Positions 9,001 to 15,000 of a stretch of 64,000 nt of DNA are shown piece by piece (the first letter of the stretch is position 1; every line of letters begins with the position of its first letter). Position numbers: made by a program. Location: positions 344,983 through 408,982 of the forward strand of contig JBMOPW010000014.1 of NCBI GenBank assembly GCA_049322915.1, written 5' to 3'. The stretch is from Candidatus Zhuqueibacterota bacterium. Lineage in GTDB: Bacteria > Zhuqueibacterota > Zhuqueibacteria > Thermofontimicrobiales > Thermofontimicrobiaceae.

Positions 9001-12000
9001 ATATGGAAATCATCGATTCACGTATTGATTGTTGTCACTTTTGATAGAATTTCAAGCAAATGGGTAGAATCATGCCGGCTCGGCTCCCCCAGTATACAAA
9101 ATAGAAATTAGAAAAACAAGTGACAAAATCATTATTAATGAAAGATAATAATTACGAAATTCGACTGACAAAAAAAAGGAACAGCTCGTTTCTCAGCAGG
9201 AAACGAGCTGGTACCTGAGGATGACGCTCGAATTCGGGAGCCAGTACACCGGCATAACCTTTCGAGGATTGATCCTGCTTTTTTATAGAGCCATTCCGTC
9301 CTGTCAACGATCTGGATCGCGTGAGAATCAAAGCTGTGTTCCGGCTTACAGCACCTGATAAATGCTGTCGAGAATGGTTCCGTCCACCCATTTGACAACA
9401 GCGACAACGGTATCGCCGTGTTTCGGTTTTTCCGGAGCGCCGCCGCACATGGCGTCAATATCTTTTTTCAGCGATAGGATCGAGCGAATCGGCAGGGAAG
9501 AATTTTTGGTCGCTTCAATCAAGTCTGTCCGTAATGGATTGATGGCGATTCCGCGTTCCGTCACGATCACGTCAATCAACTCGCCTGGCCCACACAAGGT
9601 AGTTACCTCATCGACGATGACCGGGATGCGATCCCGGAACGAAGGAATGGGCAGAATGGTGCATTTGGAGAACAAACAATTTTGCCAGCCGCCGATTCCG
9701 TGTAGCAATCGGCCGTCCGAGTGAGTAACGACATTGGCGTTGAAATGGACGTCGACTTCAGTGGCGCCCAGCACAACCACATCCACGATGGACGAGAAAT
9801 TGCCCTTGCCGTGATAATTGTAACTTGTGAATGGGCTGGTGTTGACGTGACGAGGATTTTCTCGCATGGAGCGAACGCCTTCCAGGTCAAACGTCTGTCC
9901 GTCCAGAATGTAGTCGGTGAGGCCCTCTTCCAGCATTTGAACGAGGTACTGAGTGCTGCCGCCTCGGACAAACCGGGCTTTGATGCCCATCTCTTTCATC
10001 ATATCCTTCAGGAAGATGGCGAAGGAGAGCGCCGTGCCGCCTGCGCCGGCTTGAAATGAAAATCCATTTTTCAGGATGCCGGCGTCTTTGACGAACTGAG
10101 CGGTCATTTCTGCAATGAGCAAACGATCCGGGCTTTTTGTTATTTGCGTGGTGCCGGAGATGATCTGGGACGGCTCGCCAACCTTGTCCATCTTCACCAC
10201 GTAATCCACATAATTTCCCTGAATTTGCCAGGGGACGCAGGGAAAATCAACAAGGTTATCGGTGACCACGATGACTTTGTCGGCGTACTGGGAATCAGCT
10301 AATGCAAAGCCTAACAATCCGCAGGCAGAAGGGCCGGTGACCCCATTGGCGTTGCCGAAAGGATCCGCAGTCGGCGCGGCAATCACCGCAATGTCGATGT
10401 GCACCTCACCGTCCTGCACAGCCTGATAGCGCCCGCCGTGAGAACGCAGCACTCCCAAACCGCGCATTTTTCCGGTGGAGCAGTAATCACCTAACGGCCC
10501 ATTCATGGATCCCTCGATATGATGCACCACGCCACTTTCCAGATGCCTGATAATTGGCGCATGGCAAGGGAACGACGCGCTGGGGAACCACATCAGGTCC
10601 TTCACGCCAATCTCGGCCGCAGCGTCAAAAATTTGATTGGCCACCAGATCGCCATTTCGAAAATGGTGATGGGTGGCGATTGTCATCCCGTCTTTGAGGC
10701 CGGCGCGCTCCAATGCTGTTTTGATATCCGGAACGAGTTTGTTCCCATCTGCCGGGAAATCGATGCACGATGCGATGGGCGGCGCTGCTTTTCTCCCGCC
10801 GGGTTTAAATTTGCCAACGCCCTGAAACGGAATCGCTGGCTTGCCATTGACTTCAGTGGGCACCAATCGGCCGGCGGCGTTTTTAACTAATTTATTTGCC
10901 ATTTTGTGCATCTCCTTCTCGCCAGTTTTCAGGTAATTTGCCGGTCTTTGTCGCTAAATGGATGGTGCGCATGGCGCGCTTCACCACCGGAGGATCGATC
11001 ATTTTACTTCCCAACGAAACAACACTCAGTCCGCGTGCTTCAGCTTCTTCAAAGGCTGCGACAATCTTTTTTGCCCGATCGATTTCTTCTGCGGCCGGAG
11101 CAAAGGCGTCATTGATCACCGGAATTTGCCGCGGATGAATACAGCCCTTGCCATCAAAGCCCAACGATTTGGCCTCTAAAACGCTCTGTCGGAGACCATC
11201 CATATCATTGACGTCCGAAAAAACGGTATCGATCGGCTGAATGCCGGCTGCGCGAGCCGCATTCACGACCTGGCTCCGCGCCCAGAAACTCTCACGACCT
11301 TCGAGGGTTCGCTGCGTTCCAATGTCTGCCGTGTAGTCTTCCAATCCGATCGTCAGCGCGACAATGTTCTTTGCAGCCGTGGCAATTTCATAGGCCTTGA
11401 TCGCGCCAAGTGCGCTCTCGATGATGGGCATGTAAAAAACTGACTGAGTTAAGTTCTCAGATTTGAGGATAGTGTGCACTTCGGCGTCGACGAGTTTCAC
11501 CTGCTCGGCGCTCTCACATTTGGGAATTAAAATGACATGAACATGATGCGGAACGATAAATTTCAAATCGTCAAGTCCACCGGGAATCTGATTGATGCGG
11601 ACCATCCGTTCCGCCTGGAAAAAATCGACCTGGCGAAGCGCATTGCGAACCAGCACCTGGGCGCTGTCTTTTTCCGCCAGAGCAACGCTGTCTTCAAGAT
11701 CGAGAATCACCCCATCCGGTTTATGAAGTCCGGCGTTGAGCATGAATTTGGGTTCATTGCCGGGGAGATACAACCGAGACCGGCGAAATCGGTCTCTCAC
11801 CGTAGGTCGCTGATTGGATTCGGGAATCGGAGGTAACCATTGCTTGTTATCGTCCATCTTCAAGCGGCGAATCGCACATTCCAGCCGCGCCATGAGGACA
11901 AATGGCAACGCGCCATTATCCTCCAATTCGACCGTTGCGTGTTTGATGTCAAAGAATTCCAACCCGTCTTTTACAGAGTCGTGAATGGAAGTCCCGTACA

Positions 12001-15000
12001 TCACCTGCACTTTGCTCTTGATATTCAGGTGAATCCCGCCGGAATCATTCGCCGTTATTTTTATCCAGCAATCTGACCTGACATCGGCGCCTTTTCTGCC
12101 TGCTTCGGCAGTTCTGATCATGGCACAGCCCTCCTTAAACAGATTATGATGAGATCATTGTGATTCTATTTTGCCCAGATAATAAGAAAATTTTTCGTGA
12201 ATTCAAAATAGTTTTTTATGAACCTGCCCCACGGAATAATATTGGCCGACACTCTGTTGCGCCCTGTATATTCAAAGCAGTTAAGGCAAAAAAATAGCCG
12301 GAGCATGAACATTAAAAAAAATTAATCATCGCAGAATGTTAAAAATTATTATCTTTTTCTTGACAATTGATATTTTTTTATTATATTGAATACGACGCGC
12401 CTCATTTTTCCTTCAGCGACGAGCCTCATCTTGGAACGGTTTCATGGAAGCTGTTCATATTCTGGAAATTATCATTCATCAAAGGTAACTGATTAATCAT
12501 TGGTAGTGCGCAAACACCGCTAACAATCGTCCGGGATATTTATCTGAACTGACGCCTATTCGGGGACATACGTCCCAGCCATTGCCAGCGCTGGATGAAA
12601 ATCCAGCGAGATCAGGTCCAAATTTGCAAAAGTATAGTTAATAAATCGGTTCAAATGAAAAAAGCTCACTCTACTCTGATAGAATGGGAGGTGATATTTA
12701 GATGAAAATTAGATATTCTTTGATGACAATTGTTTTTCTCTTAATATTTTCAGAGCTGTGTTTTGCCCAGTGGTCGACGGATGCATCACAAAATACACCA
12801 ATATGCACTGCTCCCAACAATCAATTTGCTCCCCAAATCGTGGTTGATGATAAAGGTAACTCCATCATTGTCTGGGAAGACGAAACCGATCCGATTGGAT
12901 ATCGCCATATTTATGCCCAACGACTTAATCGCTATGGCTGCAAAATGTGGGATGAACGGGGTGTACCGGTTTGTTCTGCACGAGAATATAAAAAAATAGC
13001 AGATGTAATAAGCGATGGAGAAGGAGGCGCAATTATTGTCTGGTTAGATTATAAAAATTGGTTCCATCCTGATCCTATTGAAGAGACCGATATTTATGCG
13101 CAGCGGATTGATAGTAGTGGAGTTATGCTTTGGAATTCAGACGGAGTGGATATATGTACAGCGGAAGGTAACCAATTCAACGCGAAAGCAATATCTGATA
13201 ACGATGGTGGAGTAATTGTCGTTTGGCAAGATGATCGATCTGAATACAATGGTGTCTATATACAACATGTTATTAATATCGGCCAAATATTATTGTCAGT
13301 CAATGGCAAACCTCTTAATTCTCAAGGAATTGTTGCTCGTTTTGGAGGGTATAATGTGGTTCATTCAGATTCAAATTCAATAATTATTTTTTATGCTTCA
13401 CGAAAAAATAATATCTCAATTTCGACCGCTCAAAAAATCAGGGAAAATGGCACATATGTTTGGTCAGAAAATGAAAAAATATTAGACATTAGTGGAAAGT
13501 GTATAAGCGATAACAATGAAGGGGCAATATTCGCTTACTTAGTGTATCAAAACGGAAATCCAATTGAACTACGTGCACAACGTATAACCAAAGAAGCAAT
13601 CGTAATCTGGCCCGAATTTGGAACTTCTATTAGTGAGCAGGTATTTCGCTATAGTAGATATGAACTGACAAAAGATGACCAATGTGGAGCTTTTATAGTA
13701 TGGATTTCGAACAATGATACGACTGAAGATAGTTTATATTTATATATTTCAAGAGTAGATAGTAGTGGACAATTATTATGGATAAAAAAATGTTTGGATA
13801 AGGTTTCCACGTGGTACGTGACTGAAGGCCATCATATTGTATGCGGTAATGAAGGTGAAGCAATTCTAAAATTTAAAATTGAAATTTCAGATACCCTTTG
13901 GAATCAAGTTATTCAAAAAATTGATCTCAGCGGAAATTTTTTATGGGGTAATAATGGGATCATCTATGTTGATCATAATCCCAAGAAAAGAGATATCGTA
14001 TGCGGCACTATGACCGGTGATGCATTTGGCGGCGCTATTATCGTTTGGGATGAATTTGGAGCGAATGGCTGGGATATTTATGCGCAGCAGGTGAGCAGTC
14101 GCGGGCAACTTGGCGACGTGGTTAGTTCAATTCATAGCTTGAATATTGAAATTAATCCTGATTATAATTTAGCACAAAGTTATCCAAATCCATTTAATTC
14201 ATTTATAAACATTTCATACTCATTTCAAAAGGGAGGTGATGTGACAATAAAACTATTTAACACAAATGGTCAACTCGTTAATACATTGGTAAACAAATAT
14301 CAAAAGGAGGGTAATTATGACATAAGCTGGAATGGAAGAAGTAGCAACGGTCAGAATGTTGTATCAGGTGTCTATTTTTATCAACTCAAAATTAATGAAT
14401 TTGCACAAACTAAAAAACTATTATTAATCCGATAAGGAGATGTTATGTCAAAAATTAATTTTATTCTATTAAGCCTGGCTATTATTTTCTTAACCATCGA
14501 CATAGCCGTTTCACAAGCAAAAGTGAAACCATTAAAACAGCTACAACCTCAATATGAAAAAATTATTCATTTCGATAAAGACGATTATGCTTTAAAAGGG
14601 ATAAATCCTGATGACTATAAGGGAAGGGAAGGAGAGCTTATATATGGCGTCCAGGGGCTGTATGCAGGAGATAAATATATCACCGTCTGGGACACCAAAA
14701 ATGTCTTTGTTTTCGATATAACCACTTATGCTAATTTAGCGACGTTAACTCCTCCGCTATCTATAAACGATATCGTTGAAAGGGATGGCGTAATTTACTG
14801 TTTGGTTAGTTCCAGCAGGATAGATAATCGCATTTATGTTTATGATTCGTTCGACAGCTTCAGGGAATATATATTTGTGAGCCAGTTTCCAAATTTATCC
14901 GAGTATAAAGCCTTCCGCGAGCAATCTGCCCGAGAAAAATATGACCGCCAGAACAAAAGGATGAAACCAAGGCTGCAAAGGCTAATTGCTCCGCAGTTGC

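Follow-up and report, generated by a model that had tools for sequence, protein, structure and literature searches.

The window, by which we mean the whole 64,000-nucleotide stretch of DNA analysed here, contains a two-gene unit in which a gene for fused CitD-like and CitE-type domains is followed by a gene for a CitF-type transferase, the ORF of the latter overlapping the end of the former (Table 1). The transferase may alternatively start at its Met4 codon (position 10902), which is preceded by an AAGGAG site. Terminator-like sites of the kind that closes the unit number 7 in the region, as against 5.3 in shuffled sequences.

Table 1. Features of the citD-citE/citF unit (positions in the window) and of partner genes elsewhere in the genome (positions on contigs C4 and C32)
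Feature	Position	Strand	Basis
citD-citE fusion gene, 409 aa	10892..12121	-	ORF and profile search: PF06857 at residues 15-86, PF03328 at residues 114-330
CitD-like domain with MdcC fold, residues 1-95, predicted to dock on CitF	11837..12121	-	PF06857, 57.7 bits; structure model
Carrier loop G11-x3-R15-S16-D17	12071..12091	-	alignments to CitD, MdcC and relatives
Arg15 codon, in place of the attachment serine	12077-12079	-	alignments to annotated CitD
CitE-type acyl-CoA lyase domain, residues about 110-392	10946..11794	-	TIGR01588, 289 bits, under the cut-off of 443
citF-type class II CoA/ACP transferase gene, 521 aa	9346..10911	-	PF04223; TIGR01584, 505 bits against a cut-off of 501
Terminator-like hairpin, 11 pairs and T run, closing the two-gene unit	9172..9210	-	consensus match only
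Weak candidate for a sigma-70-like promoter, upstream of the fusion	12179..12206	-	9/12, consensus match only
Homoisocitrate-dehydrogenase-like gene	C4:26489-27604		motif and subfamily only
Two hydratase genes	C32:105627-107432 and C32:101139-103063		motif and subfamily only

The first 130 residues of the fusion match 3625 proteins of similar length (E<=0.001), and the best 120 of these all combine PF06857 with PF03328. The citF gene adjoins the fusion in 68 of 80 GTDB loci, so that the adjacency described as invariable in an earlier note on this DNA, from a different set of relatives, is not general. TIGR01588 is the best family for the CitE domain, yet its cut-off is not reached; the Mg-binding and catalytic residues of CitE are nevertheless present, D141, E143, D144, R175, E235, D262 and D376 being invariant in 29 fusions, with roles assigned by alignment to residues described in PMC3832036 (excerpt). 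The transferase belongs to the CitF family by its TIGR01584 score and by a structure model with a TM of 0.87 to both 2hj0 and 1xr4, and its clade carries the motif G-G-W-Q-N-C as against G-G-H-x-D in canonical CitF.

Carrier serine and helper enzymes

Three annotated CitD proteins read G-T-L-E-S-[SG]-D where the fusion, in an ungapped alignment, has the loop G-A-D-V-R-S-D, which puts Arg15 in register with CitD Ser14, the residue that we take to bear the prosthetic group; our literature search found no passage stating that it does. Arg or Lys occupies this column in 80 of 82 aligned fusions, and the replacement of the attachment serine that the earlier note had proposed, a serine which classical CitDEF retains, is thereby borne out. 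Two details of that proposal need qualification: the E-S-S-D given for true CitD holds for some members, but the general form is E-S-[SG]-D, and the neighbouring serine, although frequent, is not universal (S in 75, G in 6 and N in 1 of the 82 fusions). A loop insertion that would shift Ser16 into the attachment position was ruled out by the ungapped register. In malonate decarboxylase the attachment site of MdcC is Ser25 (PMC5534430, excerpt). Profile positions 7-81 match MdcC residues 18-91 with an E value of 0.076 (the alignment itself not being displayed), which would set the serine column on MdcC residue 25 provided that the first eight positions are gap-free, and MdcC Ser25 would in this way back the identity of Ser14 indirectly.

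In this genome, which is 96% complete, profile searches detected no CitG or CitX, and the one CitC match was of 66 aa and 20 bits, below the cut-off of 20.9; MdcG reached 12.9 bits against a cut-off of 26.5, and in tblastn searches with three sets of annotated CitC/CitG/CitX the best E was 0.43. The earlier claim that the helper enzymes are missing here thus holds, and it extends to the relatives, for which CitG and CitC had still to be checked: in profile searches with positive controls, CitG and CitX were each found in 0/133 genomes of the phylum and 0/50 genomes of other phyla (completeness not given for the latter), and CitC above its cut-off in 0/133 genomes of the phylum, 53 of these having partial matches that reached no more than 35 bits where the cut-off is 262. 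With Arg in place of the serine and none of CitG, CitX and CitC over cut-off, the sequences support the view, also that of the note, that the pair cannot act as a classical holo-ACP citrate lyase with a covalent carrier.

It might still be argued that enzymes too divergent for detection load Ser16 or some other residue, considering the frequency of Ser16, the presence in one fusion (L123) of Ser at the old attachment position, the ability of remote homologs to escape profile searches and the ungiven completeness of the 50 cross-phylum genomes. We regard this as highly improbable. E. coli CitD has Gly where the fusion has Ser16, a column that in an MdcC-type register is not the site of attachment, and K-G-D loops, with Ser at neither position, occur in 7 of 29 fusions of the phylum, so that the outcome of this check on the adjacent serine, too, favours free CoA. 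Moreover, CitG, the maker of the donor, is absent from 183/183 genomes, although its profile picked up remote archaeal members in the controls, and the HD gene is the only conserved unknown gene that travels with the pair.

Probable use of free coenzyme A and proposed role of the CitD domain

Of the 133 genomes of the phylum, 55 have the PF06857 domain, which every locus read shows fused to CitE; 35 carry a SucCD-like CoA ligase with a citryl-CoA-lyase-like gene; and 9 carry an HMG-CoA-lyase-family gene, which in the three loci read is accompanied by a class III CoA transferase. There is no overlap between these three cleavage systems, a pattern which, the genomes being related and not independent, represents a few lineage-level events. 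One of the three is present in 95 of the 108 genomes that have the dehydrogenase ortholog discussed below and in 4 of the 25 that lack it. In addition, an ATP-citrate-lyase-like pair in loci L199 and L200 takes the slot held by the CitDE-CitF pair in L048, behind the HD gene and two hydratase genes. Since two free-CoA cleavage systems that sit beside the same partner genes never share a genome with the pair, and the pair has lost both serine and helpers, it very likely operates as the note had suggested, with free CoA as the acyl carrier and free acetyl-CoA as a recycled cosubstrate. CitF would move CoA from acetyl-CoA to a tricarboxylic acid with release of acetate, the CitE domain would split the resulting acyl-CoA into a 2-oxoacid and acetyl-CoA, and this acetyl-CoA would re-enter the cycle, which would make CitG, CitX and CitC unnecessary. 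Canonical CitF and CitE are reportedly active with free CoA esters, according to a 1975 paper on the subunits.

The CitD domain was modelled with a pLDDT of 88. Its best match, found by VIA-align, is MdcC (5vit_C; Z 9.7, rmsd 2.3 A over 83 residues), Foldseek having returned ribosomal S9/EF-G-type folds only; a search of the PDB by sequence found no CitD structure. A model of the CitD domain in complex with CitF scored 0.83, as against 0.00 for the best of 3 controls, the mark having been reached by 116/157 solved pairs and 2/215 mismatched pairs; the runs showed 100% contact agreement with a partner pLDDT of at least 84, and the score may owe something to the predictor having learned the MdcA-MdcC complex from its solved structure (5vit), the interface of which likewise uses the two MdcC helices (PMC5534430, excerpt). 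Residues 15-16 touch CitF in this model, and the residues conserved in the CitD domain (D17, D68, G70, R79 and E81, invariant in 82 fusions) are those at the predicted interface.

Together with the basic residue kept at position 15 and the predicted MdcC-like fold, these features speak against the word "vestigial" that the note had applied to the carrier domain. A dispensable remnant, whatever the substrate, would accord with the dN values from 11 comparisons, which are 0.19-0.45 for the CitD domain, 0.10-0.22 for CitE and 0.06-0.14 for CitF, the CitD domain thus evolving about twice as fast as the CitE part; in 3 comparisons of canonical CitD, CitE and CitF, by contrast, the divergence of all three is about the same. 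Synonymous sites are, however, near saturation in the pairs used, and the invariant residues and their position at the predicted interface make such a remnant quite unlikely. As judged from the sequences, constraint on the domain is relaxed, not gone. There is good reason to think that the domain is kept as a dock joining CitF and CitE; that Arg15, at the old tether point, holds a CoA phosphate non-covalently is conceivable, and we lean slightly against it.

Partner genes and the candidate substrate

Of the 80 GTDB loci, 54 contain at least one partner gene and 26 none: a dehydrogenase gene is found in 42, the HD gene in 39, an aconitase-family gene in 33 and a PrpD-like gene in 17. A homoaconitase type of about 660 aa accompanies PrpD in 13 loci and two large hydratase subunits occur without PrpD in 12, the two make-ups never being found together. 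The hydratases belong to the LeuC/HacA subfamily, and the 660-aa type exceeds the TIGR00139 homoaconitase cut-off (764 > 530) in the two copies scanned. The dehydrogenase passes no NCBIfam cut-off, and its best matches in the PDB are NAD-isocitrate and homoisocitrate dehydrogenases with equal score; its motif, Y-x-S-P-I-V-x-L-R, is shared with the homoisocitrate dehydrogenase of S. pombe (3ty3), isocitrate dehydrogenases having S-L-N-V instead. It is near-universal in the phylum (108/133 genomes), and its co-occurrence with the fusion is by itself uninformative. Searched against the ESM Atlas, the HD protein matched HD-family clusters only.

In the present genome the dehydrogenase, the HD gene and both hydratase orthologs are scattered over three other contigs, and the link of the pair to these partners therefore comes from the relatives. 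A separate citrate synthase, a third aconitase-family gene and a monomeric IDH are also present. Each of the three systems has operons in which L-piperideine-6-carboxylate dehydrogenase, the usual semialdehyde dehydrogenase, is over cut-off (L146, L101, L074 and G075; G026; L182), lysine-catabolic genes being found in only 9 of 113 loci; as a genome-level marker it is weak, occurring in 31/55 fusion genomes, 9/35 Ccl genomes and 11/34 genomes without any system. This genome has neither it nor a Lys1-like gene, and the syntenic site from which it is missing is intact; there is a 377-aa saccharopine-dehydrogenase-family gene, along with an aldehyde:ferredoxin oxidoreductase, in the slot that holds the enzyme in a genome of the same genus. 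A K-subclade of 16 loci, in which the CitF motif is nearer to the canonical one, has no partner gene within the fetched stretches and follows the same three-system exclusion; in the CitF tree (FastTree, with 3 canonical rows only) the R and K groups each form one side of a branch, with support of 100 and 98.

From its association with a homoisocitrate-dehydrogenase-like enzyme, two hydratases, the HD gene and sometimes lysine-catabolic genes, we consider that the pair probably acts on homocitrate, yielding 2-oxoglutarate and acetate; for the compound proposition of a citrate-lyase-type complex that uses recycled free acetyl-CoA and most likely cleaves homocitrate, our confidence is little more than even. 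2-Oxoadipate from lysine would be reductively carboxylated to homoisocitrate, which the two hydratases would turn into homocitrate for cleavage by the pair (2-oxoadipate + CO2 + NAD(P)H -> homoisocitrate -> homocitrate -> 2-oxoglutarate + acetate). If homocitrate is the substrate, this catabolic direction is the likely one. The lyase family has pro-3S stereochemistry, from which the intermediate should be (S)-homocitrate, and this would explain the second hydratase.

An enzyme using free CoA to cleave citrate, either in fermentation or in a reductive sequence from 2-oxoglutarate through isocitrate and citrate to oxaloacetate and acetate, as read for the Ignavibacterium album pair (PMC3362086, excerpt), would agree with the CitF score over the TIGR01584 cut-off, the equal scores of the dehydrogenase, the malic enzyme beside the pair in L161, the 2-oxoacid dehydrogenase and Nuo genes that make Ccl-type operons resemble a TCA cluster, and a DASS transporter in this genome that is 34% identical to E. 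coli CitT, with CitT-like transporters in 2/80 loci. We find it unlikely: citrate needs a single aconitase, and two hydratases are retained in the module, in two make-ups that exclude each other; the homoaconitase cut-off is passed; the dehydrogenase lacks the Asn of S-L-N-V; this genome has its separate TCA set; and lysine-catabolic genes lie in operons of all three systems. That the substrate is probably not citrate was missed in the earlier reading.

Were the pair to run in reverse, making homocitrate from 2-oxoglutarate and acetate or acetyl-CoA, it would replace homocitrate synthase and supply 2-oxoadipate to lysine synthesis or oxidation. CitE-like lyases are reversible (PMC3832036, excerpt), and no HMGL-like synthase was found in this genome or in the 9 others of its family; homocitrate synthase was discarded as an excluded partner, TIGR02146 being over cut-off in 0/133 genomes with 106 sub-cut-off matches indistinguishable from LeuA/CimA. 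Synthesis is nonetheless quite unlikely, given a lysA match but no LysX over cut-off in this genome and a co-operonic semialdehyde dehydrogenase of a catabolic family; by the equilibrium of citrate lyase, condensation without ATP is unfavourable at cellular concentrations. Less probable again is the cleavage of another 2-substituted malate, such as citramalate or isopropylmalate, in a reversed chain elongation of another 2-oxoacid, for which the LeuC/HacA subfamily of the hydratases and the frequent promiscuity of such dehydrogenases and CitE-like lyases (PMC3832036, excerpt) may be cited; the dehydrogenase motif fits a homoisocitrate enzyme, some neighbours are lysine-linked, and no glutamate mutase or methylaspartate lyase was among the recurrent neighbour families scanned.

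Known systems and implications

The ATP-independent citrate (pro-3S)-lyase of E. coli, Klebsiella and Enterococcus (CitDEF with CitC, CitX and CitG; EC 4.1.3.6) shares with the pair a homologous transferase (40-42% identity), a lyase 39-43% identical, the carrier fold and the two-step chemistry of transfer and then cleavage (PMC10798043 and PMC3832036, excerpts). The pair differs from it in the CitD-CitE fusion, the Arg or Lys for the carrier Ser, the missing helpers, the gene partners, and a CitF on separate branches with a changed active-site motif. As the note had said, the fusion is already in print for Ignavibacterium, where the pair of I. album (IALB_1146/IALB_1147, CitF and a CitD/CitE fusion) was taken for an ordinary citrate lyase that might serve a reverse TCA cycle, the excerpt of PMC3362086 mentioning neither the serine nor the helper genes; loci of other Ignavibacteria have R-S-D and PrpD-like and homoaconitase-type genes. 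CcsAB/Ccl (citryl-CoA synthetase together with citryl-CoA lyase) and ATP-citrate lyase likewise cleave by way of a free CoA thioester (PMC13147460, excerpt), and look-alikes of both stand in for the pair beside the same partner genes; their folds are unrelated to those of the pair, and they spend ATP with a net yield of acetyl-CoA, whereas the pair would spend none and yield acetate. Malonate decarboxylase also joins a class II transferase (MdcA) to a carrier of the same fold (MdcC), and its MdcD-MdcE takes free malonyl-CoA as well (PMC5534430, excerpt), but MdcC keeps Ser25 and needs MdcB and MdcG, and the reaction is a decarboxylation, not an aldol cleavage; the pair falls outside this system, its transferase being of CitF type (19% identical to MdcA), without MdcB (of the CitG family) or MdcG. 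The upper alpha-aminoadipate pathway (homocitrate synthase, aconitase and homoaconitase, homoisocitrate dehydrogenase) has homoaconitase- and homoisocitrate-dehydrogenase-type enzymes in common with the proposed module, which differs in having a lyase system and no synthase, a PrpD-like or second hydratase, the HD gene and a proposed backward flow.

Our literature search, which lay outside most subscription journals, found no paper on homocitryl-CoA, a homocitrate lyase or homocitrate cleavage, and none on a serine-less CitD or the proposed lysine route. Taken at its widest, and only tentatively, the proposal would be of a cofactor-free (S)-homocitrate lyase that ends a CO2-fixing degradation of lysine across many uncultured phyla, with three interchangeable, unrelated free-CoA systems and a carrier turned into a non-covalent CoA dock through a Ser-to-Arg/Lys change. 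Citrate lyase is the annotation that the pair carries in thousands of sequences (the 3625 matches above; at least 595 GTDB stretches match the lyase patterns), and a reverse TCA cycle has been suggested in print on the basis of the pair. Should the pair use free CoA and cleave homocitrate, those annotations would be wrong, the three helper enzymes would be dispensable for this chemistry, and many bacteria of sediments and digesters would be able to break down lysine without oxygen, at the expense of NAD(P)H and CO2 and bypassing glutaryl-CoA dehydrogenase.

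Loss of the attachment serine and of the helper genes

The CitD-CitE fusion and CitF genes of the window are followed by a terminator-like hairpin, and the neighbouring genes on either side are unrelated to the pair. Around the pair lie several large secreted-type proteins with FlgD-Ig/Por-like tails, and the surrounding ORFs also include an amino-acid permease and one with a CinA domain.

The loop of the fusion, G-A-D-V-R-S-D, aligns without gaps to G-T-L-E-S-[SG]-D of the annotated CitD proteins of E. coli, Gluconobacter and Enterococcus, which places Arg15 in register with Ser14 of CitD, presumably the prosthetic-group attachment residue. 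The attachment site of the homolog MdcC is given as Ser25 in PMC5534430, and a weak profile match (E 0.076), by where it starts and stops, places the carrier-serine column on MdcC residue 25. R-S-D is found in 120 of the 120 closest proteins (the best 120 of 3625, biased to close kin), including five that were pattern-scored as GSD or MSD through an earlier match and whose N-termini show R-S-D. The 29 full-length fusions of the phylum, a tally that excludes two loci truncated at contig ends, have R-S-D (9), K-S-D (13) or K-G-D (7). By pattern, 80 GTDB loci spanning various phyla were scored as R-S-D (72), H-S-D (1), S-S-D (1), other (4) or cut (2), the four "other" loops reading R-S-D, R-S-E, N-N-D and K-S-D by eye. 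Position 15 of an 82-row alignment is R in 64, K in 16, H in 1 and S in 1, and the earlier note's claim that Arg or Lys has replaced the attachment serine is thus borne out in 80 of 82 rows; by these alignments the substitution is a family trait. The adjacent serine, which the same note called conserved, is present at position 16 in 75 rows and gives way to G in 6 and N in 1; because it varies as in canonical CitD, it appears unlikely to be a substitute attachment site.

At locus L123 a lone fusion reads S-S-D, its Ser standing at the former attachment site; it comes from a 1.4-Mb genome bin with no match to CitG or CitX and, since it is nested inside the R group of the tree, is probably a reversion. 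Fusions at L072, L079, L085 (loop N-N-D), L089 and L094 have no citF in the locus despite several kb of downstream DNA.

The genome under study, 96% complete, has no match above cut-off to CitG, CitX, MdcG or CitC, as the earlier note had held for all but MdcG. That note had left CitG and CitC unchecked in relatives: among 133 genomes of the phylum, each of at least 85% completeness and 55 of them with the carrier domain, there were zero matches to CitG, zero to CitX and zero over cut-off to CitC, and CitG and CitX, the two profiles run there, both gave 0/50 in cross-phylum genomes of unstated completeness (50 of the 80). The positive controls matched in E. coli and, for CitG, also in four archaea; the 55 include two unpublished genomes (G127 and G130), without which the conclusions are unchanged. 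Sequence and gene content make it nearly certain that the tether has been lost, and the pair, lacking the serine and any CitC, CitX or CitG above cut-off, stands outside the classical holo-ACP citrate lyases.

Coordinates of the fusion/CitF pair and of features discussed with it (G000, genome under study; C, contig; L, compared locus)
Feature	Location	Strand	Remarks
CitD-CitE fusion ORF	window 10892-12121	-	409 aa; PF06857 carrier domain joined to CitE-type lyase
CitF ORF	window 9346-10911	-	521 aa; over TIGR01584 cut-off; overlaps fusion ORF
91-aa ORF	window 8678-8953	-	past terminator; no Pfam match
Secreted-type proteins	window 176-2074, 5886-8294, 12702-14435		more ORFs to 24885
Dehydrogenase	G000 C4:26489-27604		homoisocitrate-dehydrogenase-like by motif
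HD protein	G000:C26:213973-214518 (L127:6971-7519)	-	182 aa; co-occurrence with CitE-type and Ccl-type systems
Aldehyde:ferredoxin oxidoreductase	G000:C16:154354-156264 (L208:4355-6265)	+	syntenic flanks both sides; same-genus G101 has piperideine-6-carboxylate (P6C) dehydrogenase in slot
Fusion with S-S-D loop	L123:830-2029		
Unfused serine-less CitD, citE, citF, butyrate kinase genes	L202:1647-6430; L203:753-4488		K-S-D; no citC/X/G within loci

What remains of the carrier domain

The earlier note called the carrier domain vestigial, and its rate of change agrees with this: it has diverged about 2 times as much as the CitE part and about 3-4 times as much as CitF, whereas the canonical CitD, CitE and CitF subunits are about equally diverged, so that, on sequence divergence, constraint on the domain is relaxed. 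The word does not fit the MdcC-like fold of its model (pLDDT 88; best structural match MdcC, with Z 9.7 and an rmsd of 2.3 A across 83 residues, the next row reaching 8.4), the five residues that are invariant across 82 sequences, a position 15 that stays basic, or the predicted docking on CitF. The complex prediction, CoA included, docks the domain on CitF with a score of 0.83, against 0.00 for the best of 3 controls (of 157 solved complexes, 116 attain the mark for this score, as do 2 of 215 mismatched pairs), with 100% contact agreement between runs and partner pLDDT of at least 84. Its contacts join carrier residues 15-16, 37-45 and 69-73 to CitF residues 398-400, 427-429 and 488-497, adjoining the active-site motif. 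The score could stem from an MdcA-MdcC structure that the predictor had already learned and is no proof of binding; the carrier domain's role as a dock for CitF is a prediction of the model. CitE-like enzymes are described as holding the CoA phosphates by Arg, Lys or His (PMC3832036), one of which occupies position 15 in 81 of 82 rows, and by analogy a non-covalent CoA contact might be made at the old tether point.

Partner genes and other free-CoA systems

Four kinds of partner gene recur at the 80 GTDB loci: PF00180 dehydrogenase (42 loci), HD protein (39), aconitase family (33) and PrpD-like (17). In fusion-less genomes of the phylum the same partners adjoin either a SucCD-like CoA ligase and a citryl-CoA lyase-like gene that exceeds the cut-offs of PRK06224 subfamilies (the Ccl-type system, which some genomes have as two genes resembling ATP-citrate lyase) or a class III CoA transferase with an HMG-CoA-lyase-family gene. 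Genome-wide, the fusion, Ccl-type and HMG-CoA-lyase-type systems number 55, 35 and 9 with zero overlap (133 phylum genomes), although, kin not being independent, this exclusion reflects a few replacement events and not 99 trials. One of the three is present in 95 of 108 genomes with a dehydrogenase ortholog versus 4 of 25 without, seven genomes with only 40-44% matches being scored as ortholog-less. Both alternatives are free-CoA enzymes by family, and that the fusion never shares a genome with either strengthens the earlier proposal of free-CoA operation.

The HD gene accompanies 48/55 CitE-type, 35/35 Ccl-type and 1/9 HMG-CoA-lyase-type systems and 4/34 system-less genomes; its product is a candidate isomerase, epimerase or lactonase. 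Among the genes that immediately precede the fusion in Bacteroidales are a glyoxalase-family (epimerase-like) gene (18/80 loci) and carboxyltransferase and Na+-translocating decarboxylase genes (8-10/80); loci with such upstream genes include L077, L083, L084, L093, L107, L111 and L114.

No partner genes lie near the 16 loci of a K-subclade (loop K-[SG]-D), which adjoin secDF-like and purA-like genes, as read from sequence only; their CitF motif is nearer canonical, and their substrate may be different. Besides L202 and L203, about 15 further stand-alone serine-less CitD occur among 150 representatives, and at L204-L206 such a CitD and citE, without citF, stand behind a gene that is QueE-type radical SAM-like by its N-terminus.

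Substrate and pathway setting

We rather favour homocitrate as the substrate predicted from these sequences. The dehydrogenase motif is Y-x-S-P-I-V-x-L-R, as in S. pombe homoisocitrate dehydrogenase, and not S-L-N-V, and the ~660-aa hydratase exceeds the homoaconitase model cut-off in 2/2 copies scanned. Citrate, the unlikely alternative, would need one aconitase, whereas the loci keep two hydratases in two exclusive make-ups (~660-aa hydratase plus PrpD, 13; two large hydratase subunits, 12; both, 0); a CitT-like transporter (34%) in the genome under study keeps citrate in consideration. Biosynthetic homocitrate is (R). CitE-type lyases have (3S) thioesters as substrates, going by the family name and PMC3832036, and for homocitrate the intermediate would therefore be the (S) form. 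According to PMC5690661, aconitases eliminate anti, acting on the arm derived from oxaloacetate, and a syn elimination is required for the product of PrpD.

Operons of all three systems include P6C dehydrogenase, aminotransferase or saccharopine-pathway genes, which suggests lysine catabolism as the setting, although only 9/113 fusion loci have lysine-catabolic genes. In the genome under study, the dehydrogenase, the HD gene and both hydratases have orthologs on contigs other than the pair's, the dehydrogenase matching its operon-linked counterparts at 53-56%. A separate set comprises a monomeric IDH and a citrate synthase that has an aconitase-family gene as neighbour. The genome has a lysA match over cut-off, within which one stop is reported, but none over cut-off for LysX. 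No HMGL-like (LeuA/CimA/homocitrate synthase) gene was found in it, nor a TIGR02146 match in 9 other genomes of its family, so that leucine synthesis seems absent. It also has no P6C dehydrogenase; our guess is that the aldehyde:ferredoxin oxidoreductase and a saccharopine-dehydrogenase-family gene elsewhere in the genome could supply the lysine route.

The Ignavibacterium album fusion has been published as an ATP-independent citrate lyase (PMC3362086), and a literature search that left most subscription journals uncovered turned up no paper dealing with the absent serine, homocitryl-CoA or the proposed route. The pair is predicted, with considerable confidence, to work like citrate lyase, with free acetyl-CoA standing in for the tethered prosthetic arm in a citrate-lyase-type cycle, and is possibly part of a new pathway.
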